Shown here piece after piece: positions 22,486-37,922 of a DNA stretch of 64,000 nucleotides. The stretch lies in the NCBI RefSeq assembly GCF_001677475.2, contig NZ_CP015229.1. One strand, given 5' to 3'. Source of the DNA: Escherichia coli. GTDB taxonomy: Bacteria > Pseudomonadota > Gammaproteobacteria > Enterobacterales > Enterobacteriaceae. The notes below the pieces were generated by a model, which worked only from the letters and a program-made list of their open reading frames with translations, did no database searches and was not told the origin of the DNA. Position numbers and translations under genes: made by a program. The number at the start of each line of letters is the position of its first letter. Positions within the stretch are counted from its first letter, which is position 1.

Positions 22486-23898
22486 TTATTCTATTGCCCG
22501 ATACACGGCCTCGCCAATTTGCTTCAGTGCTACGCGATAGGTTTCGCTGAGCGGCAAAGCGCAGTTGATACGCAGACAATTACGGTATTTACCGGAAGCC
22601 GAGAAAATCGAGCCTGCCGCCACCTGGATTTTCATGCGGTACAGCTGCCGCGCGACGCAGACCATATCGACCTGTTCAGGCAATTCGATCCACAGTAAAA
22701 ATCCGCCTTTCGGGCGCGTAATACAGATTTCGCAGGGAAAATATTCCCGTATCCAGCAGGTATAAAGCGCCAGATTGCGCTGATAAGTCTGCCGCATCCG
22801 CCGGATATGGCGATGATAGTGACCTTCCAGCACAAACGTTGCCGCCGCCATTTGCGTGGACGGCACATTAAAGCTGCTGATGGCGTATTTCATATGCATC
22901 AGTTTATCGTGATAACGCCCCGGTGCGACCCAACCCACGCGCAGGCCTGGAGCAATACTTTTACTGAACGAGCTGCACAACAGCACTCGCCCGTCGATAT
23001 CCCATGAATGAATGGTCCGCGGGCGCGGATACTCCGTTGCCAGTTCGCCGTAGACATCATCTTCAAAAATCACAATATCATGACGCTGAGCGAGAGAGAG
23101 AACGGCCCGTTTGCGCGCGTCCGGCATAATAAATCCCAGCGGATTATTACAGTTTGGCACCAGAATGATGCCTTTAATCGACCACTGTTCCAGCGCCAGT
23201 TCCAGCGCTTCAACGCTGATGCCTGTTTCTGGATCGGTTGGGATTTCAATCACTTTCACGCCCATGCCACGCAGCATCTGCATCGAACCGTAATAACAGG
23301 GGGATTCGACCGCGACAATATCGCCCGGTTTACACACTGCCATTAACGCCAGCGACATCGAGTTATGGCAGCCGCTGGTGATAATGATGTCATCGGCGGT
23401 GACCACCGAGCCGCTGTCGAGCATCAGGCGGGCAATCTGCTCTCGCAATACCCGCTGACCGGCTAACAAGTCATAACCGAGAACGGTTTGCAGATTATGC
23501 TGCACCACCCGGCTTAGCTCCCGCCACAGCGGTTTCAGGCTGGGCGTTTCGACATCCGGCGTGCTTTTGCTTAACGGAACAATGGAACTGTCGCTATGCG
23601 CCACCAGCATATCCAGCACCTGATCCCACTGGGTAATTTCCACCGGGCGCTGCACCGGACGCGTCATCGGCGGTACAGGCGGCTGGGCTTTACGTTGTGC
23701 GACAAAATAACCCGAACGCGGCTGCGGAGTGATGAGCTTCATCGTTTCCAGCGTCTGGTACGCCTGCTGCACGGTGCTGATGCTGACGCCGTGCTCCTGG
23801 CTTAAGCTGCGCACCGACGGCAATTTCTCCCCGTGACGATACAGCCCCTGCTCAATCCGCTCGGCAAGTAGAGTCGCCAGATGTTGATAACGCGTCAT
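22486..23898 (-). CDS. yjiR: MocR-family regulator (GntR HTH fused to aminotransferase-like domain) YjiR
   Basis: 470-aa ORF; N-terminal HTH (LPSVRSLSQEHGVSISTVQQAYQTLE) plus PLP-aminotransferase-like body. Confidence 0.85.
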   Translation of the reverse strand: MTRYQHLATLLAERIEQGLYRHGEKLPSVRSLSQEHGVSISTVQQAYQTLETMKLITPQPRSGYFVAQRKAQPPVPPMTRPVQRPVEITQWDQVLDMLVAHSDSSIVPLSKSTPDVETPSLKPLWRELSRVVQHNLQTVLGYDLLAGQRVLREQIARLMLDSGSVVTADDIIITSGCHNSMSLALMAVCKPGDIVAVESPCYYGSMQMLRGMGVKVIEIPTDPETGISVEALELALEQWSIKGIILVPNCNNPLGFIMPDARKRAVLSLAQRHDIVIFEDDVYGELATEYPRPRTIHSWDIDGRVLLCSSFSKSIAPGLRVGWVAPGRYHDKLMHMKYAISSFNVPSTQMAAATFVLEGHYHRHIRRMRQTYQRNLALYTCWIREYFPCEICITRPKGGFLLWIELPEQVDMVCVARQLYRMKIQVAAGSIFSASGKYRNCLRINCALPLSETYRVALKQIGEAVYRAIE

Positions 23899-24074
23899 GC
23901 TGTATTCCTTATTTGGACCATACAGAGAGAAAAACCGGTACAGATGAGGCTAAAAAACCGGATGCAGATGCTGTTTTAACCTGTCTGTATGTTAAATAAA
24001 ACTAATATTTGCATCTGTATTGTGAACTGCCAGAAGGCGGATGATTAAGCCTCTGAAAGATGAGGAGGCAGCAG

Positions 24075-24239
24075 ATGGAATTTCACGAAAACAAAGCTAA
24101 AGCACCGTTTATTGGACTTGTGCAACTCTGGCAGGTGATGAGGCGTTGGCGGCGGCAAATGCAGACCCGACGAGTGTTACAGCAGATGAGTGATGAGCGG
24201 TTGAGGGATATTGGGTTACGCAGGGAGGATGTGGAGTGA
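24075..24239 (+). CDS. yjiS: DUF1127 small protein YjiS
   Basis: Manual translation MEFHENKAKAPFIGLVQLWQVMRRWRRQMQTRRVLQQMSDERLRDIGLRREDVE (54 aa); GAGGAGG SD 6 nt upstream. Below the track's length cutoff. Confidence 0.75.
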   Translation: MEFHENKAKAPFIGLVQLWQVMRRWRRQMQTRRVLQQMSDERLRDIGLRREDVE

Positions 24240-24335
24240 TGGGGCTGTTCGTCGCGGATAAACAGGATTTCTATATAACCTTCACAAGGAAGTGTTTATT
24301 ATTGTGAAATCATCGCTTCACGGAAAGACGTCAGA

Positions 24336-26429
24336 ATGAAAGCAACAGAAGCCCGTTTACTCGATTTTTTAAAACGTTCGCAGCAGTTTGTTATTCCCAT
24401 TTATCAACGCACCTATTCATGGACAGAGCAACAATGTCGGCAACTTTGGGACGACATCATTCGTGCCGGAAAGCGTGACGATATATCCGCGCATTTTATC
24501 GGTTCGGTTGTTTATATAGAGCAGGGGTTGTATCAGGTTTCCGGTATTTCTCCGTTGCTGGTCATTGATGGTCAACAGCGGCTGACGACCGCAATGTTGC
24601 TGATTGAGGCTTTATCGCGCCATCTTGGCGAAGAAGAAGTTTTTGATGGCTTTTCGGCAATGAAATTGCGTAATTATTATTTACTCAATCCTTATGAGTC
24701 CGGTGAGAAAGGATTTAAATTACTGCTGACCGAGACCGATAAAGACAGTTTGCTGGTGTTAATAAAACAAAGACCAATGCCAGAAAACTATTCCCATCGA
24801 ATAATGGAAAATTTTAGTTTCTTTGATGAGCAAATTACCAAACTCGGTGATGACTTGATCCCCTTATGTCGTGGGTTAGCAAAGCTATTAATTGTCGATG
24901 TGGCGCTTAATCGTGGTCAGGATAATCCGCAACTGATTTTTGAAAGTATGAACTCCACCGGTAAGGCGTTAAGTCAGGCCGATCTGGTGCGCAATTTTAT
25001 TCTGATGGGCCTCGAACCAGAGCATCAAACACGGTTGTATGAAGATCACTGGCGTCCAATGGAAATCGCTTTTGGTCAGCAAGGTTACAGCGAATATTTT
25101 GACAGTTTTATGCGTCATTATCTGACGGTAAAAACGGGGGAGATCCCTCGGACAGATGAAGTCTATGAGGCATTTAAACTACATGCCCGCAGCCAGAGTG
25201 TTGCTGAAAAAGGCGTAGATCGGCTGGTTGAAGATATACACATCTACGCGGAGTATTACTGTGCAATGGCATTGGGTAAGGAAAGTGACAAATCGCTTGC
25301 CACGGCTTTTCAGGATTTGCGCGAGTTAAAGGTCGATGTGGCGTATCCTTTCTTACTGGCGCTTTATCATGACTATAAAAATGGCGTTTTGTCTCACGAA
25401 GATTTCCTGAGCATAATTCGTTTAATTGAATCTTATGTTTTCCGCCGTGCAGTGTGTGCAATTCCGACGAATTCTTTGAACAAGACGTTTGCCACTTTTT
25501 ATAAGATCATTAATAAAGAAAATTATCTGGAAAGCATTCAGGTGCATTTTATGAACCTGCCTTCGTATCGTCGTTTCCCCAACGATGATGAATTTAAACG
25601 GGAATTAAAAGTTCGCGATCTCTATAACTTCCGCAGTCGCAGCTACTGGTTACGACGACTAGAAAACGATAAACGCAGAGAGCGCGTGGAAGAGTTTACG
25701 ATTGAGCACATTATGCCGCAGAACGAAAACCTGTCGGCTAAATGGCGCGAAGAGCTGGGAAGCGACTGGCAGCGTATTCATAAAGAATTGTTGCATACGT
25801 TGGGGAATCTCACTTTAACGCGCTATAACTCCCGCTACAGTGACAGACCTTTCGCGGAAAAACGCGATATTGAAGACGGCTTTAAGCATAGCCCGCTCTA
25901 TTTGAATATCGGTCTTGGGCAGTGCGAAAAATGGGATGAAGCCGCCATTCGCGCCCGAGCCGATCGTCTGGCCGATCTCGCGGTTCAGGTCTGGCAAGCG
26001 CCTTCTCTTCCTGAAGAGGTATTAGCTGTTTATCGGGGTCAGCCGGAGAACAAAACCAGTTACAGCCTGAGTGATTATCCTTTCCTTGCTGATGGTTCGC
26101 ATAGCCGGGTGTTATTCGATCATCTTCGCGATGAAGTTATGCGCCTGGACGCAGGGATCACACAGGAAGTTTTAAAGCTGTATATTGCGTTTAAAGCGGA
26201 AACGAATTTTGTTGATGTTGTGCCGCAAAAAAGCCGACTGCGATTGTCGCTTAATATGCAGTTTCATGAACTGGTCGATCCGAAAGGTATTGCCAAAGAT
26301 GTGACAAATGTTGGGCGCTGGGGCAATGGTGATGTGGAAATTGGTTTCAGCGACCTCGCACAACTTCCTTACATTATGGGATTAATTCGTCAGGCATTTG
26401 AAAAACAGATGGAGAGTGCGTTGGTATAA
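24336..26429 (+). CDS. GmrSD-family (DUF262 + DUF1524/His-Me finger) putative type IV modification-dependent restriction endonuclease
   Basis: 697-aa ORF; N-terminal DUF262 signature (PIYQRTYSW...LLVIDGQQRLTT), C-terminal DUF1524-like region (FTIEHIMPQN...LGNLTLTRYN). Confidence 0.7.
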   Translation: MKATEARLLDFLKRSQQFVIPIYQRTYSWTEQQCRQLWDDIIRAGKRDDISAHFIGSVVYIEQGLYQVSGISPLLVIDGQQRLTTAMLLIEALSRHLGEEEVFDGFSAMKLRNYYLLNPYESGEKGFKLLLTETDKDSLLVLIKQRPMPENYSHRIMENFSFFDEQITKLGDDLIPLCRGLAKLLIVDVALNRGQDNPQLIFESMNSTGKALSQADLVRNFILMGLEPEHQTRLYEDHWRPMEIAFGQQGYSEYFDSFMRHYLTVKTGEIPRTDEVYEAFKLHARSQSVAEKGVDRLVEDIHIYAEYYCAMALGKESDKSLATAFQDLRELKVDVAYPFLLALYHDYKNGVLSHEDFLSIIRLIESYVFRRAVCAIPTNSLNKTFATFYKIINKENYLESIQVHFMNLPSYRRFPNDDEFKRELKVRDLYNFRSRSYWLRRLENDKRRERVEEFTIEHIMPQNENLSAKWREELGSDWQRIHKELLHTLGNLTLTRYNSRYSDRPFAEKRDIEDGFKHSPLYLNIGLGQCEKWDEAAIRARADRLADLAVQVWQAPSLPEEVLAVYRGQPENKTSYSLSDYPFLADGSHSRVLFDHLRDEVMRLDAGITQEVLKLYIAFKAETNFVDVVPQKSRLRLSLNMQFHELVDPKGIAKDVTNVGRWGNGDVEIGFSDLAQLPYIMGLIRQAFEKQMESALV

Positions 26430-26475
26430 CGTGGCGAATAATACCCGGTAGCACTGGCGCTACCGGGTCAATCTA

Positions 26476-26817
26476 TCAGGCGACTTTCTGTTTACCGGCA
26501 ATCACCCCAATAAATTCCTGCACCTGCTTTTGTTTACGTGCCGACAGCTTGCACACCTGGCGCAGTGACTGCATCAGTTCGCTCTCTTCGGGGGCGGGTG
26601 GTTGGGTGGTGAGGATAATACAGCCTTCCATCACTTTGACATCTACCGCCGTGCCAGTGGCAAAACCGGCGGCTTCCAGCCACTGACCTTTCAGGGTGAT
26701 GGCGGGAATGCGGCTGTAATCCGGGTAGCGACTCGCATAACTCACGGTTAATTGACGGTTATTTGCTGGGGAGACTTCTGCTTCGAACGGTTGTGCAATA
26801 GAATGCGTGTCAGTCAT
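26476..26817 (-). CDS. symE: SOS-induced toxin-like protein SymE
   Basis: Translation from ATG 26817, [34 protein letters not shown]... (113 aa), recognised as SymE; the track ORF extends upstream to 26874. Confidence 0.85.
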
Positions 26818-26885
26818 GATTACTATTCCTTTGAAATAGGGATTGTGATTAGCGGTGCGGGTGTGTTGGCGCACATCCGCACCGC
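26800..26885 (+). ncRNA. symR: Probable SymR antisense sRNA (approximate placement)
   Basis: Placed by homology logic only: SymR is described as antisense to the symE 5' end. A 9-bp perfect hairpin (gcggtgcgg/ccgcaccgc, about 26852-26884) lies at the expected 3' end. Ends not determined. Confidence 0.3.
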
Positions 26886-26894
26886 GCTAAATAC

Positions 26895-26910
26895 CTGTAT
26901 ATATCATCAG
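26895..26910. promoter_or_regulatory. LexA-box-like palindrome upstream of symE
   Basis: CTGTATATATCATCAG, against the CTGT-N8-ACAG consensus with one mismatch; about 80 nt upstream of the symE ATG. Confidence 0.55.
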
Positions 26911-26991
26911 TAAATATGGGGAAAGTCCAGCTAAAAATTAATGAAAATAAGATGAAAATTAGCGTACAATATAATTTTTGGTGATGTGAAT

Positions 26992-27013
26992 AAAGCGGCT
27001 ATTTAGCCGCTTT
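26992..27013. terminator. Hairpin with flanking T-runs downstream of hsdS (possible bidirectional terminator)
   Basis: aaagcggct-attt-agccgcttt perfect stem, flanked by T-rich runs on both strands. Confidence 0.55.
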
Positions 27014-27037
27014 ATTGGTTTTATGAGGGCGAGGAAA

Positions 27038-28798
27038 TTAGTTTATCGCCGCGTCAGTGAGTGCGTCTGCAAGGTGCAGTTGGGTTTGCTGGGCGGATTG
27101 GATATGATTCTTTAATTCTTCACATAGTTTATAAAAAATATGTAGTTTACTCATTATTTTTTTTGCTTCTGAGCTAGGAGGAATAGCAACAGGACAACCT
27201 CTGAGCTGGGTTTTATTAATAGAGGCTAAATTAGTGGTTTGCTTACTTGCGTTAGCAAAATATTGTCTTGAGAATGGGCTATTCATATATGTTTCTAACC
27301 AATATGGATCAACATCTTGCCCTATATTTCGTCCTTTGAATACATGGTTTTGATTTGCTATATACCAGTCATGACACCATACTGTAGTTCTCCCGACTGT
27401 ATCCCAGTCGCCGCCTTCTGTGATCAATAAATCTCCCTTGACTACTTGATATTTTTCTTTTTCCTCAATAGGGATTTCAATCTGTTTAATTTCCGTAAGA
27501 TCAAGATATCCGCGTTGGACGTTTGCCACACGTAAATAAGGAACTTTTACCAAAGTTCTATTTGATAAATTTCTTCCTTTAGTGATACCACTTTGAATAT
27601 CAATAATATCTTCAAATAAACACCACTCCCACCCTTCCGGCAGTTCAAATGGTTTTTCCTCATCGCTAATTGGCGGCAACGGTTTTTGTTTTTTTATTTT
27701 TCCTTTTTTCACCAGTTGAGCTTTTTCCTGCGCAATTCGTTTGAGCAGTTCAGAGGCAGGTTCGTCATTCGGATCCTGCGGCACAAGTTTACCCATTACG
27801 GCCAGTTGCAGAATGGTCTGTTTTAATGCATCCACGCTGGCTTCGGTGGTAAATAGTGTGTCGAAATGCTCGCTAATACGCGCCCAGTTTTCAGCCAGTT
27901 CCTCGGCGTTTTGGCTGTCTGTAAGCGTTCCCAACAGGGTTTCAACCAGTTGCTGATGTGCGTCCAGACTGGCCAAGGATTGCTGTTCCAGTTGGTCGCA
28001 AAGGGACATGAGCTCCTGTACTTTGGATACAATACGTATTTGTTCTTGGTAAGGTGGTAAAATAACAGGGATCTCTTTTAACTTAGACGCTTTTATTCCT
28101 GTTGCGGTCATGCCTGTAGATTTGTCACTTAGTTGTGACTGGAAGGGGATCGCCAGGATTTGAATAAGCATAAAAGGGCTTATCTCTGGAGTATGCCATT
28201 GAAAACAGATAGAACGTTGAGCAAGAGCGAACTTTCCGTCTAAATCAATAATCGCTGCATTCCCCAGTGGTGCTTCAGTCGTGAATAAAATATCACCACA
28301 TTTAGGAAAGCCTCTTGTCATCCATGATATGTAATCTTCTTCAGATATGAACTCTTCTGGATTGAGATCAATATAGCCCTTTCTGATATTTTTTGCTGTT
28401 ATAAGCCTTATACCATTTTCTTTTTTATGTGGTGTTTTTCCTCGGTAATCGATGAATTTAGCTAAATTACCAAGTCTTATCCATGACCACTTTTCGGGGG
28501 TATCGATATAATATTCATTTCCATGGATATTAGTGCTTGCTGTGGTTTTCATACCATTATTGCGCGCTAATTCTTTTTTCCGTTCTTCATTACGCTTCAG
28601 CAGCTCCGACGCTGGTTCATCATTCGGATCCTGCGGCACTAGTTTACCGCGCACCGCCAGTTCCAGAATCAGCTCACGCAATTTCTTAATGCCATACAAA
28701 TCAATTTTACCGGAACTGCCGCGCCCGGCGGTGGAACGGGTTTGCAACGCCGAGGTCCAGGTTGCCATATGATCAACGATCAGCTTTTCCACACTCAT
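27038..28798 (-). CDS. hsdS: Type I restriction-modification specificity subunit HsdS
   Basis: 586-aa ORF with two target-recognition domains and a duplicated conserved spacer (LVPQDPNDEPASELLKR at both about aa 45 and about aa 335); ATG overlaps the hsdM stop (ATGA). Confidence 0.85.
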   Translation of the reverse strand: MSVEKLIVDHMATWTSALQTRSTAGRGSSGKIDLYGIKKLRELILELAVRGKLVPQDPNDEPASELLKRNEERKKELARNNGMKTTASTNIHGNEYYIDTPEKWSWIRLGNLAKFIDYRGKTPHKKENGIRLITAKNIRKGYIDLNPEEFISEEDYISWMTRGFPKCGDILFTTEAPLGNAAIIDLDGKFALAQRSICFQWHTPEISPFMLIQILAIPFQSQLSDKSTGMTATGIKASKLKEIPVILPPYQEQIRIVSKVQELMSLCDQLEQQSLASLDAHQQLVETLLGTLTDSQNAEELAENWARISEHFDTLFTTEASVDALKQTILQLAVMGKLVPQDPNDEPASELLKRIAQEKAQLVKKGKIKKQKPLPPISDEEKPFELPEGWEWCLFEDIIDIQSGITKGRNLSNRTLVKVPYLRVANVQRGYLDLTEIKQIEIPIEEKEKYQVVKGDLLITEGGDWDTVGRTTVWCHDWYIANQNHVFKGRNIGQDVDPYWLETYMNSPFSRQYFANASKQTTNLASINKTQLRGCPVAIPPSSEAKKIMSKLHIFYKLCEELKNHIQSAQQTQLHLADALTDAAIN

Positions 28799-30267
28799 CA
28801 GTTAACCTCCTTGCCAGACAGCGCAGCGCCAAGAATATCGCGCAGTTGATTACGCAGCGTCTGGATCTCCGCCTGCTGTTTTGCATACTGCGCTAACAAT
28901 TCATCTGGATCATGGCTGACGGTTTCCGCCTGATGTGGGTTTTTAATATCCAGATTGAAGTTACGCGCAATCACGTCATCAATGCTGACTTTCCACGCCT
29001 GCTCATTCTCGACGCGGCTGGCAAAACCATCGGCCTCGTTACCCCACCAGTCGATCTCCGCCTGAAACTCTTCAAACTTCATCGGCTTGGTTTTGCTGTA
29101 ATTTTTCACGCCCGCCGGATACGGATGCTCATAGAACCAAATCTCTTTGGTTGGCTGACCTTTGGTAAAGAACAACAGGTTGGTTTTAATGCCGGTATAG
29201 GGGTTAAACACACCATTTGGTAAACGCACGATGGTATGCAGGTTGCACTCTTCGGTAAGTAGCTTTTTGATTTTGGTTTTAACACCTTCGCCAAATAGCG
29301 TGCCATCCGGCAATACCACCGCCGCGCGACCGTTTTTCGCCAGTACTTCCACAATCAGTTGCAGGAACAGATCCGCCGTTTCGCGGGTTTGCATCTCTGC
29401 CGGAAAGTTCTTCTCAATACCGTCTTCTTCCGTGCCACCAAACGGCGGGTTGGTAACAATGACATCCAGTTGTTCATCCCAGGAGGAAAGCGGTTTGTTC
29501 AGGGTGTTGTCGTGACGAATTTGTACCGGTACTTCAATGCCGTGCAGCAGCATATTGGTGGTCGCCAGCAGGTGCGGAAGCTGTTTTTTCTCAACACCGT
29601 GGATCTGTTGTTGCAGCGTCTGATGATCGGCGACGCTCTTCACGTATTTGTTCTTTACATGATCGAACGCGCAGGCAAGAAAACCGCCCGTACCGCAGGC
29701 CGGGTCCATAATGGATTCGCCGAGTTTCGGATCAACGCGATCCACCATAAAGCGAGTGACGGCGCGTGGAGTATAGAATTCGCCCGCATTGCCCGCAGAT
29801 TGCAGATCTTTAAGGATCTGTTCGTAAATATCACCAAACAGATGGCGTTCGCTGGCGCTGGTAAAGTCAATTTCGTTCAGCTTGTTGATCACCTGACGCA
29901 GTAGCGTACCGTTTTTCATATAGTTATAGGCATCGCTGAACGCCTGCTTCACCACGTAGCCGCGTGGGTTTTTATCGATAGGCGCAGTGAGGTTTTTCAA
30001 CGCCGGGAACAGATCATCATTAACGAATTCCAGCAGGGAATCACCGGTAATGCCCTGAGCGTTTGCGGCCCAACTGCGCCATAAATAACGCTGTGGGATC
30101 GGATATTGATAGTTATCCTGCTCCAGTTCCAGCGCCTCTTCCTGGGCATCGAAGATTTTCAAAAACAGCAGCCAGGAGAGCTGACCGAGACGCTGCGCAT
30201 CGCCGTCCACACCGGCATCTTTGCGCATAATATCTTGTAATGATTTGATTACTGAACTGATAGACAT
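28798..30267 (-). CDS. hsdM: Type I restriction-modification N6-adenine methyltransferase HsdM
   Basis: N6-Mtase motifs (DPACGTGGFL; NPPFGG); start placed at ATG 30267 (MSISSVIK...), since the more upstream ATGs lie in or next to the hairpin that follows hsdR. Confidence 0.85.
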   Translation of the reverse strand: MSISSVIKSLQDIMRKDAGVDGDAQRLGQLSWLLFLKIFDAQEEALELEQDNYQYPIPQRYLWRSWAANAQGITGDSLLEFVNDDLFPALKNLTAPIDKNPRGYVVKQAFSDAYNYMKNGTLLRQVINKLNEIDFTSASERHLFGDIYEQILKDLQSAGNAGEFYTPRAVTRFMVDRVDPKLGESIMDPACGTGGFLACAFDHVKNKYVKSVADHQTLQQQIHGVEKKQLPHLLATTNMLLHGIEVPVQIRHDNTLNKPLSSWDEQLDVIVTNPPFGGTEEDGIEKNFPAEMQTRETADLFLQLIVEVLAKNGRAAVVLPDGTLFGEGVKTKIKKLLTEECNLHTIVRLPNGVFNPYTGIKTNLLFFTKGQPTKEIWFYEHPYPAGVKNYSKTKPMKFEEFQAEIDWWGNEADGFASRVENEQAWKVSIDDVIARNFNLDIKNPHQAETVSHDPDELLAQYAKQQAEIQTLRNQLRDILGAALSGKEVN

Positions 30268-30289
30268 GTTGTATTCCATGAAAAACAAG

Positions 30290-30320
30290 GCCTTCTGCAA
30301 CATGATGGTTGCAGAAGGCG
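30290..30320 (-). terminator. Hairpin plus T-run between hsdR and hsdM (terminator/attenuator candidate)
   Basis: gccttctgcaac-atgatg-gttgcagaaggc perfect 12-bp stem; on the minus strand it is followed by TTGTTTTTC immediately before the hsdM start. Confidence 0.5.
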
Positions 30321-30333
30321 CAAAAGAGAGTTG

Positions 30334-32766
30334 TTAAGCAGAGCGGGGCGGTAATTGGTAGATTTCGTTTTCCAGCTCGCTGAGCGCCTGATTATACCCG
30401 TTACGGTCGCCAAATCCGGTTTTAATAATCTCCGGTAAGGTGCCCATGCTGTCGAATGGTTTAAGTTTCAGCACCTGAATACTTTCGATCTCCTGTACGC
30501 CCGCATCGGCGTATTTATCCAGCAGATTATCGAGCACGGCTTGCGCTGCTTCAGAGTATTTTGTGAAGTAGTTCCGCTTGCGCACGTTCTCGGCGCGCTC
30601 TTTGCGGGTTAACGGCGGCTGACCATACACTACGTGGCAAAGCATGTCGAACGGGTCGAGATCTTTACCGACTTCTTCTGCCAGCACTTCCCAGATGATC
30701 CCCTGTTGCTCCAGCTCGTGAATGATCGCTTCTTTGCGATCGGCGTCCTGCCACTTGCGGGTAAAGTCATCCAGCGAGGCATATTCTTTGAGCAGTGTTT
30801 TACGGGTGTAATCTTTAAAGGATTCGGTAACCAGTTTTCCGTCGGCATCGTAATACTGAACGCGCTGTGCAATAACGCCCACCGCCACGCCATTGACGTG
30901 AAACTTGCGGATTTTCTTCTCGTCTTCTTCCGGAAGTGGGCCAACATCATCGGTATCGGTAACCTGGTATGGCGGCGCAGGCGGTTCATCAACGCCTGTC
31001 ACCTGCTCTTCGTCATGTTCGCTGATTTCTTCGAGTTTCTCTTCAAAATCAGATTCTGGATCGGCGATATCCTCTGGTGTGGTATCCATGACTTTTTCGG
31101 GAATGCCATCGAAACGCTCATCGGCAAACAGTTCGGTGGCTTTTTTAAAGTCGAGGATGGTAAACCAGAGTTTGCCGTAACGTTCGTCGATGCGTGTACC
31201 ACGACCGATAATCTGCTTGAATTTGGTCATCGACTGGATGTTCTGATCCAGTACTACCAGTTTGCAGGTTTTAGCATCCACACCGGTGGTCATCAGCTCT
31301 GAAGTGGTCGCGATAACCGGGTACGGTTTTTTCGGGTTGATGAAGTTATCCAACTGAGCTTTGCCAATTTCATCATCACCGGTAATTTTCATGACGTATT
31401 TGTCGTTCTTTTTCACCTGCTCCGGGTTGAGATTAACCAGGGCGCGGCGCATACGTTCTGCATGATCGATGTCGTTACAGAAGACGATGGTTTTATCCAT
31501 CGGGTTGGTGCGCTTGAGGTAGTCGGTAATGGTTCTGGCAACCAGTTCTGTGCGTTCGTCGATTACCATTGTGCGATCGAAATCTTTCTGGTTATAGATA
31601 CGATCGTCGATCACTTCGCCGTTTAAGTCAGTTTGCCCTTTGGTTGGGCGCCAGCCTTGCAGATCAACATCAATATCAACACGGACAACTTTATAAGGGG
31701 CGAGGAAGCCGTCTTCGATCCCTTCTTTTAGCGAGTAGACGTAAACCGGATCGCCGAAGTAATCCGTGCTGGAGACTTCATGGGTCTCTTTTGGCGTGGC
31801 GGTTAAGCCAATTTGGGTGGCGGAGCTGAAATAATCAAGGATCTCTCGCCAGGCGCTGTCTTCGGATGCGCTGCCGCGATGGCATTCGTCGATCACGATC
31901 AGATCGAAGAAATCTGGTGCGACTTGTTTAAACGCTTTTTGGTCTTCCTCCGGGCCAGTTATAGCCTGATAGAGTGCGAGGTGTATTTCATAAGCGGGAT
32001 CAATGGTGCGCCCGCTGACTTTGGTCATTGCCGTACCAAATGGCTGGAAATCATTATTTTTGGTTTGGTCGACCAGAATGTTGCGATCGGCAAGGAACAG
32101 AATGCGTTTTTTATTTTTTGATTTCCACAGGCGCCAGATGATCTGGAATGCGGTATAGGTTTTCCCTGTTCCGGTCGCCATTACCAGCAGAACACGGTTT
32201 TGCCCGTTGGAGACGGCTTCTATGGTTTTGTTGATTGCCTGAAGCTGGTAATAACGTGGCGATTTACCGCTGCCATCGTCGTAATAGTCCTGAGTAATCA
32301 CCGGAAGCTGAGCTTGTGTGTATCCTTTCCAGAGGCAGAATTTTTGCCAGAGTTCAGCGGGGGAGGGGAAGTCATCCAGCGTTATTTGCTTTTCAAGGCA
32401 TTCACCTTCGGCTGCGGTAGCATCGCGGAAGATAAAGCCATCACCGTTGGTGGCAAAAACAAAAGGAACGTCCAGCAGGCGCGCGTATTCAATGCCCTGT
32501 TGCATCCCTTTGCCAATTTCATGTTTGTTGGCTTTTGCTTCAATCACGGCTAAGGGAATGCCTGGTTTGTGATACAGCACGATGTCAGCAGATTTTACCG
32601 TTCTGCGTGCCGCAACTTTACCACGTACGATGACTTTACCGTCCCGGAGTTTGACCTCCTGTCTGATTTGCGTTGTGTTGTCCCAGCCTGCATTGAGAAT
32701 GGCTGGCATAACGCATTTGGTAATGATGTCTGCTTCCGTCAGGTTACTTAGGTTCAGTTCCGCCAT
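30334..32766 (-). CDS. hsdR: Type I restriction enzyme endonuclease/helicase subunit HsdR, short form (type IB/EcoAI-like)
   Basis: 810-aa ORF; PD-(D/E)XK N-terminus, SF2 helicase motifs (MATGTGKT; DECHR). The 810-aa length is well below the roughly 1170 aa I recall for EcoKI HsdR and matches what I recall for type IB. Confidence 0.85.
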
Positions 32767-32906
32767 GGGGTGTTCTCATCTAAATGCGATGCGCAAATTC
32801 TACACAGAAAAATAGATGAATTCATCTGTTCAAAGAGTATTATCAGCGTTAAGTCACTGTTTTAAAGGTATTCTTGAGTTTCATCAATAGTAGGATAAGG
32901 ATTCAT

Positions 32907-33875
32907 ATGGAGAATGTTCGGTTCTTGCAAGGAGTGAAACAATATTTTTGTACTAAGGCATTAGATGTCATTCTGCTAATTTATCTACTCCTTGGTTTTA
33001 TACTTCTCCCTTATAAATATCTGTGGAAAGATATTATTTTATCTCTGTGCTTTGTTGGTATTCTTCTTTATGCATTAGTGGAAGAAAATCGCATTACAGA
33101 ATATATGGGGTATTTTGTCAAGTTCAGTAATAAAAACAGTTTGAATAGTTGTGCTGCCTGGTGTTCACTTATTGCATGGTTTATATTTTTGTTTTTTGTG
33201 CTTTCAATTAATATTTTTCCAGTCAGTGTCTCTGTATACGTTTTTAGTGCTTTTTCAGTATTTGTTTTTCTGGGAGGTGTTTTTATTATATTAGAGTTGG
33301 AATTTAAAAATAATAAAAAATTAATGATTATTAGGTCTATGACTTTAGCTGTCATACCAATTATATATTTATTCTCAAGTAGTTTTTCTTCCAGTTTATT
33401 TTTAAGTTTGAGTAATCTAAATATCACACTATCACCATGGGTTGAGTATTTCTGGAAAGGGATGGCTTTTTTGTTTCTTTTCTTCATGTTAATGCAACTT
33501 ATTATCTATTTTACTTTTTTAACTCTGTGGGCTAAATTAAGTGTGTACAGGTTGTTTATACTTGCCGGAGCATTTATAGCATCTACTATTTTAGTGGTTT
33601 TTGCTTCAAAAAACGTAGAGAGTATTTCGTACTACGTTTTAAAAAGTACTATAGATTTTGAATGGCGCAGTCAGGTTAAATGTGGACAGTTGAATATTTC
33701 ACATCCGGATGAAAGGTATTTCGGGTTTAATACCGATAAATATACTGTATTTTATTCCAATAGAGAGGGTAAATGGGGGTTCAATGAGTTGAAATGTAAG
33801 AAAGGTTCTGACAGGAGAGATGCATATTCCATTGAGAATGTCTCAGAATATAACGTGCCAGGATGGCTGAAATAA
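32907..33875 (+). CDS. Uncharacterized AT-rich polytopic membrane protein (about 6-7 TM) with about 85-aa soluble C-terminal domain; sits where K-12 has mrr
   Basis: Track ORF 32874..33875 starts at TTG; preferred start ATG 32907 with AAGGA SD 5 nt upstream. Strongly hydrophobic N-terminal 240 aa, hydrophilic C-terminus; visibly AT-rich; no recognisable catalytic motif. Confidence 0.6.
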   Translation: MENVRFLQGVKQYFCTKALDVILLIYLLLGFILLPYKYLWKDIILSLCFVGILLYALVEENRITEYMGYFVKFSNKNSLNSCAAWCSLIAWFIFLFFVLSINIFPVSVSVYVFSAFSVFVFLGGVFIILELEFKNNKKLMIIRSMTLAVIPIIYLFSSSFSSSLFLSLSNLNITLSPWVEYFWKGMAFLFLFFMLMQLIIYFTFLTLWAKLSVYRLFILAGAFIASTILVVFASKNVESISYYVLKSTIDFEWRSQVKCGQLNISHPDERYFGFNTDKYTVFYSNREGKWGFNELKCKKGSDRRDAYSIENVSEYNVPGWLK

Positions 33876-33914
33876 GTTATCTTTATAATTAAATCGTAAA
33901 GGTTCTGGACATAA

Positions 33915-34106
33915 ATGAGCATGGTTAAACATAAACGGGGCACACTCTACACACTTGATGTGCAGCAAGAAGCTGAACTCAAGGCTTTGGTTAATAAATC
34001 CGACGATTATATTGATTACAGCGATATTCCTGCGTCTGGTAGCGATGCATGGGCTGACGCCAAACGCAGCAATTTTTTGCCAAATCCAGGTATTCACGCG
34101 CAATAA
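33915..34106 (+). CDS. Small BrnA/DUF4415-like protein (possibly truncated antitoxin-like remnant)
   Basis: 63-aa ORF 40 nt after the membrane-protein stop; motif IDYSDIPASGSDAWADAKR resembles the DUF4415/BrnA signature; no ribbon-helix-helix tail and no BrnT-like partner seen. Confidence 0.4.
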   Translation: MSMVKHKRGTLYTLDVQQEAELKALVNKSDDYIDYSDIPASGSDAWADAKRSNFLPNPGIHAQ

Positions 34107-34185
34107 AACTTAGCGGAGGGGAGCTCGTCGTTCTGCTTCCCCCTCACTGCTAAATGGGGCATTGAACTGCTTTACACTCAACCTT

Positions 34186-35148
34186 TCACGCAGACTTCCT
34201 CAACCCCGCAAACGCCGCCCGAATCTCATCCTCCGGCAGCTGAATCCCGATAAACACCATCGTGCTATGCGGTTTTTCATCGCCCCACGGGCGGTCCCAG
34301 TCGGCGCTGTAGAGGCGCTGGACGCCCTGGAACAGCAGGCGGTTAGGTTCGCCGTCAATCCATAGCATCCCTTTGTAACGCAGCAGTTTATCCGCCGACT
34401 CCAGCAGCAGGTTTTCCATCACCCGGGAAACTTCGCTGATATCTACCGGGTAATCCAGTTCCACCACAATCGACGAAATATCGTTTTGTTTATCCGCGAT
34501 AAAGTGAAAACGTGGCTTGGTGCTGACGACGTTCTCTTCCAGCATAAAACCGTTGGTGTTGAACAGCAGGCCCAGGTCGATGTCGCCGTGGGTGACGGTG
34601 TAGACCGGTGCGCGGGCGTTGATGCGCGCCAGGCGTTCACGCAGTTTCTCTGCTTCGCCTGCGACGTCGGTTTTAGTCAGCAGAATACGGTCGGCGTAGC
34701 CAACCTGGGACTGGGCGATGGTGAACTGGTTCATCTGCTCATCGGCATGTACCGCATCCACCAGCGCAATCACGCCGTCCAGCAGGTAGCGCTGGCATAA
34801 AATCTCATGGGAGAAAAAGGTCTGAATAATCGGGCCGGGATCGGCCATGCCGGTGCATTCAATGACCAGACGGTCGAACTGAATATTGCCCTTGTCGAGA
34901 TTATCCAGCAGGTCGAGTAGCGCGTCTTCCAGCTCGTTGGAGCGCGAACAGCAGATGCAGCCGTTGGTCAGCGTTTTGATCTGCGTGGCGCGGTCGCCAA
35001 TCAGTTGATCATCAACGGAGACTTCGCCGAATTCGTTTTCAATCACGGCAATCTTGTAGCCGTGTTGTTCGTTAAGAATATGGCGCAACAGGGTGGTTTT
35101 GCCCGCGCCTAAAAAACCGGTGAGTAGGGTAACTGCAATCGGGTTCAT
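34186..35148 (-). CDS. yjiA: CobW/P47K-family GTPase YjiA
   Basis: Translation from ATG 35148, MNPIAVTLLTGFLGAGKTTLLRHILNEQHGYKIAVIENEFGE... (P-loop GTPase). Confidence 0.9.
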   Translation of the reverse strand: MNPIAVTLLTGFLGAGKTTLLRHILNEQHGYKIAVIENEFGEVSVDDQLIGDRATQIKTLTNGCICCSRSNELEDALLDLLDNLDKGNIQFDRLVIECTGMADPGPIIQTFFSHEILCQRYLLDGVIALVDAVHADEQMNQFTIAQSQVGYADRILLTKTDVAGEAEKLRERLARINARAPVYTVTHGDIDLGLLFNTNGFMLEENVVSTKPRFHFIADKQNDISSIVVELDYPVDISEVSRVMENLLLESADKLLRYKGMLWIDGEPNRLLFQGVQRLYSADWDRPWGDEKPHSTMVFIGIQLPEDEIRAAFAGLRKSA

Positions 35149-35158
35149 GCTCTCTCCA

Positions 35159-35362
35159 TTAACAACAGCGCATACCGCCTTTACCATCGCCGCCGTAGCG
35201 CGCGTTCTGGCGTTCGCGGAAGAATTCTTCATAGCTCATGTACGGCTTGTCGGGATGGTTGGTCTTCATATGCTCGACGTAGTTGTCGTAGTCTGGAATG
35301 CCAATCAACATCTTCGCCGCCTGGCCGAGATATTTTTTTGCCTGTCCTAAGTTACCAAACAT
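35159..35362 (-). CDS. yjiX: DUF466 small protein YjiX (BtsT-associated)
   Basis: 67-aa product [67 protein letters not shown]; the track ORF is longer only because it reads through the upstream REP. Confidence 0.85.
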
Positions 35363-35410
35363 TTTGCCTTCCAGATATGCGTAAAGCCCGGAAGGTCCGG
35401 GCTGGGGATT

Positions 35411-35488
35411 TGCCGGATGCGGCGTACACGCCTTATCCGGCCTACGATAGACACTTTGTAGGCCGGATACGCGCAGCGCATCCGGCAA
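35411..35488. repeat. REP element pair between btsT and yjiX
   Basis: gccggatgcggcgtacacgccttatccggcctac ... gtaggccggatacgcgcagcgcatccggca. Confidence 0.75.
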
Positions 35489-35492
35489 CCGG

Positions 35493-37643
35493 TTAGTGGT
35501 GCGAAGAGATCTTCACGCCGCCTTCCGGGATTGGAACGTACGGCGTTTCTTTGTCAGTACGTTTGTCGCTGTTACGCACCTTCAGCCAGGTTTTGAAACC
35601 GTAGAAGATGATGCTGTACACCACAATCAGGAACAGAATACTCAGGCCTGCGTTGGTGTAGTTGTTCACAACGATGTGGTTCATGTTGGCAATCTGCTGC
35701 GCCGTCAGGTCAGTACCGTTAGCAATCTTCTCTTTGTACTGGCTTGCCATGTAGAAGAAGCCTTCCATCTGCGGGTTGGTGCTGAACAGTTTCAGACCCA
35801 GCGCCCAGGTGGTGCAGATAAGCAGCCATACCGCCGGAACAACAGTTACCCAGATGTATTGGGTGCGCTTCATCTTAATCAGCACAACGGTGCCCAGAAC
35901 CAGCGCTACGGCTGCCAGCATCTGGTTGGAGATACCGAACAGCGGCCACAGGCTCTTAACGCCGCCCAGCGGATCGACCACGCCCTGATACAGCAGGTAG
36001 CCCCACAGACCCACACAGCCCGCTGTACCGATGATACCGGCAACCAGAGAGTCGGTTTTTTTCAGGAACGGGATGAAGTTACCCAGCAGGTCTTGCAGCA
36101 TAAAGCGGCCAGAACGGGTACCGGCATCCAGCGCGGTCAGGATGAACAGGGCTTCGAACAGGATACCGAAGTGATACCAGAAGCCCATGTCAGCCATCGG
36201 CAGCACTTTGTGGAATACATGAGCGATACCTACCGCCAGCGTCGGCGCACCACCTGCACGGTTCAGGACAGAAGGCTCACCAATGTCTTTCGCGGTTTGC
36301 AGGATCTGCTCTGGCGAAATCACGAAGCCCCAGGAGCTGACAGTCGCCGCCGCGTGTGCGGTAACGTCTTTCAGCTGCGCCATGATGATTGGCGCGTTCT
36401 CGCCACCCATTTCATGCAGGTTAGGCATGGTGATGCCGAGGCCAGCAGGCGGGGTGTTCATCGCGAAGTAAAGACCCGGTTCGATGATGGACGCAGCAAC
36501 CAGCGCCATAATCGCCACGAAGGACTCCATCAGCATTGCGCCGTAGCCGATGAAACGCGCATCGGTTTCGTTAGCCAGCAGTTTCGGCGTCGTACCGGAA
36601 GAGATCAGCGCGTGGAAGCCAGATACCGCACCACAGGCGATGGTGATGAACAGGAACGGGAACAGAGCGCCTTTCCACAGCGGGCCAGTACCATCAATGT
36701 ACTGAGTCATCGCAGGCATTTTCAGTTCCGGGTTCAGCACCACGATACCCAGCGCCAGGCCGACGATAACGCCGATTTTCAGGAAGGTTGCCAGATAGTC
36801 GCGCGGTGCGAGGATCAGCCACACCGGCAGCAGTGCGGAAACAAACGCATAGCCAATCAGCGCGAAGGTAATGGTGGTGTCTTTAAAGGTCAGTGCCGGA
36901 CCCCAGTACGGATCGTGAGCAATCACGCCACCGAAGTAGATAGAGGCAACCAGCAGCACGATACCAATGACAGAGACTTCACCTACACGCCCCGGACGAA
37001 TAAAGCGCATGTAGATACCCATAAACAGCGCAATCGGTACGGTTGAGCAAACGGTGAAGACACCCCACGGACTTTCGGCCAGGGCTTTAACCACAATCAG
37101 CGCCAGGACGGCAAGGATGATGATCATGATTAAGAAACAGCCAAACAGCGCGATAGTCCCCGGTACTGGTCCCATCTCTTCTTTGATCATCTCACCGAGA
37201 GATGCGCCGTTACGGCGAGAGGAGATAAACAGCACCATAAAGTCCTGTACCGCACCGGCCAGCACTACCCCCGCCAGCAGCCACAGCGTGCCAGGCAGGT
37301 AGCCCATCTGCGCGGCGAGCACCGGACCAACCAGCGGACCGGCACCGGCGATAGCGGCGAAGTGGTGACCAAACAACACGTAACGGTTGGTCGGAACGTA
37401 GTTCAGACCGTCGTTGTTAATAACCGCAGGCGTCGCGCGCGTGGGGTCGAGTTTCATCACCTTCTGGGCGATGTACAGACTGTAGTAGCGATACGCCACC
37501 AGATACACCGACACAGAGGCGACCACGATCCACAGGGCGCTGACGTGCTCCCCCCGACGTAATGCAACTACCGCGAGGCAGAATGCACCGATGATTCCGA
37601 GAATCACCCAGGGTATGTGCTTGAATAGTTTTTTCGTATCCAT
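35493..37643 (-). CDS. btsT: Pyruvate/H+ symporter BtsT (CstA family)
   Basis: Translation from ATG 37643, [43 protein letters not shown]...; large CstA-type polytopic transporter. Confidence 0.9.
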
Positions 37644-37922
37644 AGTAAAACCTGGCATTTTACTCGTCGTCTTTTGGCTTACAGGTGCGACAGCTGCATT
37701 TGTTCACCTCTGTCACTTACTGTTGTAAGCTCCCGGGGATTCACTCACTTGCTGCCTTCCTGCAAACCAAAATCCATTGAGTAATTTGTTAATCATAGGC
37801 CGAAGCCGTTCTAGGTTTGCGTTGCGTTTGAGGAGGTAAATTGACCGCTATCCTGCAGTGATGTTGCCAGAGTTACGCGCGCGTAAAGTAAGGTAAATAA
37901 CTGAGTGGTTATTTTAGGGACG

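Follow-up and report, generated by a model that had tools for sequence, protein, structure and literature searches.

A symE/SymR toxin-antitoxin locus with a LexA box between the GmrSD and hsd restriction genes of an Escherichia coli genome

The region lying between the GmrSD and hsd restriction genes in the 64-kb stretch of Escherichia coli DNA analyzed here (referred to below as the window) is, as judged from sequence comparison, very probably an intact, SOS-controlled copy of the type I toxin-antitoxin locus symE/SymR. The system is a known and described one, and the sequence-only reading that preceded this analysis, which had proposed a symE/SymR pair with a LexA-box-like site, identified it correctly; that interpretation is supported by a full-length Rfam match to SymR, by a gene geometry shared with E. 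coli K-12, and by a LexA box and a symR −10 hexamer that are identical to those of K-12. As a toxic protein restrained at three levels, by LexA, a cis-antisense RNA, and Lon, SymE is a textbook case. The locus matters little beyond its correct annotation, and the window gives no special handle on the role of SymE after DNA damage. The features to which the text refers are listed below in order of position.

24336..26429, plus strand: GmrSD type IV restriction gene, an intact 697-aa ORF with GmrSD_N, GmrSD_C, and DUF5655
26443..26468, minus strand: probable symE terminator hairpin, a perfect 10-bp inverted repeat (ACCCGGTAGC/GCTACCGGGT) followed by AUUAUU (minus strand)
26476..26817, minus strand: symE coding sequence from the ORF listing, 113 aa plus stop, with the ATG at 26815..26817 and the stop at 26476
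26476..26938, no strand: symER cassette, ~463 bp, delimited by breaks in the blastn and K-12 alignments at both ends
26799..26804, plus strand: symR promoter −10 TAGAAT, inside symE codons 5-7 and identical to K-12
26812..26888, plus strand: SymR antisense sRNA, 77 nt, Rfam RF01809, with the same overlap geometry as K-12 symR (b4625)
26827..26831, minus strand: symE Shine-Dalgarno (SD) sequence AAGGA, 9 nt before the ATG, read from the sequence and placed by its spacing
26852..26885, plus strand: SymR 3′ stem-loop (SymR positions 41-74), 15 bp in the RNA including G·U, from the inverted repeat and the fold
26893..26912, no strand: LexA (SOS) box ACCTGTATATATCATCAGTA, with a CTG-N10-CAG core at 26895..26910, from matrix score and K-12 identity
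26921..26930, minus strand: conserved CTGGACTTT(c) block holding the −35-like TGGACT (26924..26929), from cross-genus comparison
27038..32766, minus strand: hsdS-hsdM-hsdR operon, type IB (EcoAI/EcoEI-family), beside symER

The protein encoded by the symE ORF matched the Pfam family SymE_toxin (PF08845) over residues 20-71 with a score of 75.3 bits against a cut-off of 29. It was 94% identical to K-12 SymE in an ungapped alignment over 113 of 113 residues, with seven amino acid differences, and in matching E. coli genomes the DNA of this ORF is annotated as symE. The earlier statement that symE is conserved was thus borne out. A longer ORF of 132 aa (26476..26874), opening at an in-frame upstream GTG, was rejected because the ATG of the 113-aa frame has an SD sequence and agrees with K-12 and with all homologues. 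An SD sequence is also marked in the corresponding region of K-12 symE (Kawano 2007, PMC1891008, Fig. 1 legend). The hairpin at 26443..26468 sits just after the symE stop codon and is the probable symE terminator; the hairpin found at this place in K-12 differs in sequence. Neither a second symE nor a second SymR copy was found in the 64-kb window, and a PDB sequence search with SymE returned no match.

On the opposite strand, the Rfam symR model (RF01809) matched over positions 1-77 of 77 (93.4 bits; gathering score 61; E = 2.4e-18), and this was the only non-tRNA Rfam family above gathering in the whole window. SymR and symE overlap by 6 nt (26812..26817), which are the first 6 nt of the coding sequence and are annotated identically in K-12. 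SymR is fully complementary to the symE 5′ UTR, the SD sequence, the start codon, and these first 6 nt. The geometry is that of a cis-antisense RNA, with the symE SD sequence and ATG inside SymR and the SymR −10 embedded in the symE ORF. The predicted fold of the RNA has an energy of −41.4 kcal/mol (z-score −7.3). It had been held that the ends of SymR cannot be set from sequence, a view that proved too cautious, given that Rfam homology and the K-12 geometry together place the RNA at 26812..26888. When the alignment check proposed at that stage was run, SymR aligned exactly here and nowhere else in the window. Exact SymR coordinates are what is gained, the RNA being unannotated by PGAP in two non-K-12 E. 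coli records inspected. Two further Rfam matches, to IS128 (25.8 bits; gathering score 80) and to the L20 leader (22.4 bits; gathering score 58.7), were weak, overlapped the spacer, and were rejected as chance similarities that arise from its AT-rich sequence and from the hairpin terminating hsdS.

The sequence-only reading had also placed a perfect 9-bp hairpin over the region in which SymR was expected to be antisense to the symE start. The perfect repeat is real, its arms GCGGTGCGG (26852-26860) and CCGCACCGC (26877-26885) forming the core of the SymR 3′ stem-loop. The proposed coverage of the start codon did not survive, since the hairpin is located 35-68 nt upstream of the symE ATG. The symE SD sequence and AUG are faced by the SymR 5′ stem-loop and not by the 3′ hairpin, with AAGGA standing opposite the apical part of the 5′ stem-loop.

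A Rho-independent terminator was sought at the SymR 3′ end. The hairpin is present there, followed by GCUAAAUACC with no U-tract, and the terminator scan found nothing at 26852..26895. Further along the plus strand, the first T-rich terminator is a bidirectional hairpin at 26989..27016, which also ends hsdS. Nothing on SymR 3′-end formation was found in the accessible literature. Either trimming as far as the hairpin or a block at the symE promoter/LexA box, when occupied, could produce the end, which abuts the LexA box at a conserved distance of 6-9 nt. As a separate observation, a promoter-like site (26941..26970, plus strand) lies between the SymR 3′ hairpin and the terminator at 26989..27016, within an AT-rich spacer that is absent from K-12.

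LexA boxes are 20-bp sites that resemble TACTG(TA)5CAGTA, with a CTG-N10-CAG core. Against a matrix of 18 E. coli boxes from the literature, an uncurated set whose members themselves score 13.5-26.3 bits, the 20-mer at 26893..26912 (ACCTGTATATATCATCAGTA) scored 17.4 bits; this value falls within the range of the training boxes and was the top score in the 64 kb (0.02 expected per random 64 kb). The 20-mer is also identical to the K-12 symE/yjiW box, and the proposal of a LexA-box-like site was thereby upheld. The box has 5 mismatches to the perfect consensus, and a search for that consensus allowing up to 3 mismatches gave no match. The site had been described as a CTGT-N8-TCAG palindrome about 80 nt upstream of symE. 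The motif is present as CTGTATATATCATCAG at 26895..26910, 77 nt from the symE ATG, and its CTG...CAG part is palindromic, whereas CTGT and TCAG are not. Bare CTGT-N8-TCAG has two matches in the window where 1.46 are expected, which is chance level, and CTG-N10-CAG occurs 22 times. The significance of the site derives from its matrix score, its identity to K-12, and the conservation of its position across genera: CTG-N10-CAG was found 6-9 nt past the SymR 3′ end in 21 of 22 scorable related loci. The exceptions noted were a Kosakonia site with a degenerate CAA half-site and one contig that ends before the box. A 2024 re-analysis reports a heterology index (HI) of 7.9 and LexA-dependent expression for symE, with weak induction by replication stress in K-12.

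These data bear directly on whether the hairpin and CTG-N10-CAG could be chance or generic intergenic features, such as parts of the hsdS terminator, unrelated to SymR or LexA. The 22 occurrences of the bare motif, together with a perfect 9-bp hairpin in ~2% of shuffled 435-nt regions, are what such an explanation has in its favor. It is at odds with the E value of 2.4e-18 for the RNA that contains the hairpin, with the rank of the 20-mer as the best LexA-matrix site in 64 kb, with the conserved positions of both hairpin and LexA motif across genera, and with the hsdS terminator being a separate hairpin at 26989..27016. It is effectively refuted and is given next to no credence here.

The second-best LexA-matrix site in the window, TACTGTATTTTATTCCAATA at 33743..33762 (14.8 bits), has CAA and not CAG in one half-site and is probably a chance match. 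It lies inside an AT-rich 333-aa membrane-like ORF without a Pfam match and ∼150 nt upstream of a 63-aa ORF (33915..34106) that is annotated “antitoxin” in E. coli AH65.

A generic sigma-70 scan missed the promoters of both symR and symE; the symR call is founded on mutational evidence from K-12 and the symE call on cross-genus conservation. In K-12, two silent changes that convert CATTCT to CACTCC (symE sense) abolish SymR and raise SymE protein (Kawano 2007, PMC1891008). The TAGAAT of the window corresponds to the hexamer affected by this mutation because CATTCT is the complement of AGAATG. TAGAAT or TACAAT was present at a constant distance upstream of the SymR start in all 23 of 23 loci. 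On the symE side, CTGGACTTT is nearly invariant across genera, and a 17-nt spacer from TGGACT puts TGATAT (26901..26906) inside the LexA box. Both hexamers are weak matches that the generic scan missed; we infer that they constitute the −35 and −10 of the symE promoter. The candidate symE −10 reads TAAATT, TAGATT, or TAGGTT in the Klebsiella/Raoultella/Enterobacter group and related loci.

A search of species-representative genomes with a degenerate SymR DNA pattern yielded 20 loci. The genera represented were Escherichia, Salmonella, Citrobacter, Pseudocitrobacter, Klebsiella, Raoultella, Enterobacter, Kosakonia, Pantoea, and Entomohabitans. Each of the RNAs was antisense to an ATG-initiated SymE-like ORF, of 106-114 aa apart from one truncated to 30 aa (L014). 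The SymE ORF, the embedded −10, SymR, the LexA box, and the −35-like CTGGACTTT recur together in at least 10 enterobacterial genera. When 23 SymR sequences were aligned, standard pairs made up 93.5% of cells compared with 22-50% with slid partners, and in the 3′ helix 98% of cells were paired and 3 pairs carried changes on both sides; these covariation values are biased, the search pattern having fixed many stem positions, and are supportive rather than independent evidence.

Several of these loci deserve individual mention. In Pantoea ananatis (L012, 4767..4844) and Pantoea allii (L021, 2420..2498), SymE is 39-40% identical to the window protein, SymR still satisfies the strict pattern, and the LexA-like box has a low score of 6-7 bits. 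Conservation of the RNA and leader thus greatly exceeds that of the toxin coding sequence. In Pseudocitrobacter vendiensis (L014, ∼2450..2905), symE is broken after 30 codons and SymR, the −10, and a high-scoring LexA box are intact; this is possibly a toxin pseudogene that retains its antitoxin RNA. Two metagenome-assembled genomes labelled “Bacillota bacterium” (L011 and L023) carry GmrSD-symER-hsd DNA that is 94-98% identical to the window, and these are almost certainly Escherichia contigs mis-binned into Bacillota assemblies.

The way in which the locus would operate can be outlined from K-12, whose elements are all nearly identical to those of the window. LexA bound at 26893..26912, over the putative symE core promoter, would keep symE off until DNA damage leads to LexA cleavage. 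A stable 77-nt SymR would be made constitutively from the promoter in the first symE codons (−10 at 26799..26804). By pairing over the symE 5′ UTR, SD sequence, and start codon, it would block translation and secondarily lower the level of the mRNA. Degradation of SymE by Lon protease, the third control layer in K-12, would presumably apply here too. With the putative −35 TGGACT and the putative −10 inside the LexA box, the symE mRNA would start at ∼26892-26896, and SymR would therefore cover essentially the whole leader. Given its perfect complementarity to that leader, translation of escaped symE transcripts would be blocked. In K-12, symE is repressed by LexA, SymR, and Lon, which degrades SymE; SymR (RyjC) is 77 nt long, has its promoter embedded in the symE ORF, and is stable and ∼10-fold more abundant than symE mRNA (Kawano 2007, PMC1891008). 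SymR is likewise described in a review as overlapping the symE RBS and start codon and blocking translation.

SymE itself would be an AbrB/MazE-like protein that inhibits growth when over-made, by means of non-specific DNA binding and nucleoid compaction. A passage of a 2024 review (PMC11894785) citing Thompson 2022 describes SymE as being without endoribonuclease activity and as showing sequence-independent DNA binding and extreme nucleoid compaction. The RefSeq product name in K-12 is “nucleoid-associated protein SymE,” and PGAP writes “endoribonuclease SymE” in most other genomes, a name that is probably out of date. The PGAP name speaks for an alternative with the same regulation, in which SymE would be an endoribonuclease-type toxin, or would promote cleavage of RNA on the ribosome, and so recycle RNA damaged under SOS conditions, as in the 2007 model. 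The findings of Thompson 2022, as relayed in that review passage, the renaming of the K-12 product in RefSeq, and the AbrB/MazE-like DNA-binding fold of the SymE domain (Kawano 2007, PMC1891008) all count against the alternative, which we consider unlikely. Published views of what SymE does biochemically conflict, and the DNA-binding model is favored here over the RNase model.

The limits of the locus were apparent from blastn comparison with 18 loci from other genomes, in which the boundaries fell at 26476-26494 and 26912-26951, most ending at 26937/26938. Because the match to K-12 and to other genera ends abruptly at ∼26476 and ∼26938, symER is viewed as a self-contained cassette reaching from the symE stop codon to just upstream of the −35. 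DNA of the symE region was present in 2,872 of 5,426 complete E. coli genomes, and in 705 of the 5,426 at least 80% of a 16-kb query with the GmrSD-symE-hsd layout was covered. symE was directly downstream of hsdS in the same orientation, with a type IA or IB system, in 10 of 23 loci examined; other neighbors included an integrase, a non-specific endonuclease, Hcp, a Dcm-type methylase, and Fic. The association of symE with restriction-modification systems, transposons, and islands was already noted by Kawano 2007 (PMC1891008). To this the present comparison adds a compact, sharply bounded module whose promoter, LexA, and antisense layout is shared by at least 10 enterobacterial genera; most copies are in defence or mobility islands.

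With regard to the neighboring genes, GmrSD is annotated as two fragments or as a pseudogene in the closely matching E. coli MSI001 and AH65. HsdM and HsdR are 99.6-100% identical to those of E. coli AH65, and HsdS (586 aa) is only 74% identical; this divergence of HsdS, on sequence grounds, probably reflects a different recognition specificity.

More speculatively, symER may have a function beyond that of a selfish toxin-antitoxin passenger, with compaction by SymE after damage acting as restriction alleviation. The idea stems from the finding of an SOS-controlled cassette immediately 3′ of hsdS in 10 of 23 loci. If it is true, nucleoid compaction would protect repaired, unmethylated chromosomal DNA from the neighboring restriction enzymes. 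A smaller possibility concerns the SymR 3′ end: LexA or RNA polymerase at the symE promoter, or else trimming to the hairpin, could determine it, and such a mechanism would make the length or read-through of SymR depend on the SOS state. These more novel readings are distinctly improbable in our estimation.

Elsewhere in the window, the best identity found among the 5,426 complete E. coli genomes was 98.1% for 1..20000, 97.2% for 20000..36000, and 98.9% for 35493..37658, and none reached 99%. From sequence identity, the window looks like the product of an Escherichia lineage that is poorly represented among these genomes. A 20-kb stretch containing a 1,746-aa ORF (5796..11036, minus strand), for which annotation of the E. 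coli matches includes the inverse autotransporter IatD, was covered to at least 80% in only 554 of the 5,426 genomes. At its right end the window carries a tandem pair of 84-nt tRNA genes (63768..63851 and 63889..63972, minus strand) that score identically.

The closest known system is symE (b4347, formerly yjiW)/symR (b4625, formerly RyjC) of K-12 (Kawano 2007), with which the locus shares a 113-aa SymE (94% identity), a 77-nt SymR, the 6-nt overlap with the coding sequence, and a place directly downstream of hsdS in the immigration control region. The symR −10 and the LexA box show no difference from K-12, and in the SymR 3′ half the one difference is at position 44. The flanks differ, with GmrSD and a type IB (EcoAI-family) hsd operon in the window and mcrBC and a type IA (EcoKI) hsd operon in K-12. 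Relative to K-12 SymR, the window RNA carries 12 substitutions in positions 7-29, that is, in the 5′ stem-loop and symE SD region, and one at position 44. At position 44 the window has G, which closes the A·C mismatch of the K-12 3′ helix to a G-C pair, and it is because this residue is G and not A that the 9-bp stem of the earlier reading is perfect. The SymR 5′ stem-loop is predicted to be weaker in the window than in K-12 (−10.7 versus −14.3 kcal/mol), and its minimum-energy fold is shifted in register relative to the Rfam consensus. Complementarity between SymR and the symE leader is unaffected by the substitutions because both are encoded by one DNA.

Such differences could be taken to mean that the locus has become a silent relic, its sequence kept merely through recent descent, and that one or more of the symE promoter, the SymR promoter, and the protein no longer works. 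The seven amino acid differences from K-12 SymE, the SD/loop region unlike that of K-12 with its weaker predicted SymR 5′ hairpin, the weak induction of symE by replication stress in K-12, and the truncated symE in one related locus (L014) would fit such a relic. It is contradicted by the full-length ORF and by the identity to K-12 of the −10, the LexA box, the −35-like block, and the SymR 3′ half, and the retention of the same elements across at least 10 genera at 70-95% DNA identity argues for selection. A relic is accordingly considered very unlikely.

Among other SOS-controlled systems of E. coli, tisB/IstR-1 and dinQ/AgrB resemble symE/SymR in combining a LexA-repressed toxin with a constitutive small RNA that blocks translation, as described in a review. 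The toxins of these two systems are small hydrophobic membrane peptides, in contrast to the 113-aa soluble AbrB-fold protein SymE. Their RNAs are divergently encoded and have limited complementarity to their targets, whereas SymR is a true cis-antisense RNA over the RBS. A further difference is that SymR is stable and the toxin, through Lon, is the labile partner.

The protein itself finds its counterpart in the MazE/AbrB antitoxins and transcription factors, with the ∼60-aa core of SymE corresponding to an AbrB/MazE-like swapped-hairpin DNA-binding domain according to profile and threading analyses (Kawano 2007, PMC1891008). In contrast to the MazE/AbrB antitoxins, the AbrB-fold protein of symE/SymR is the toxic partner and has no protein partner.
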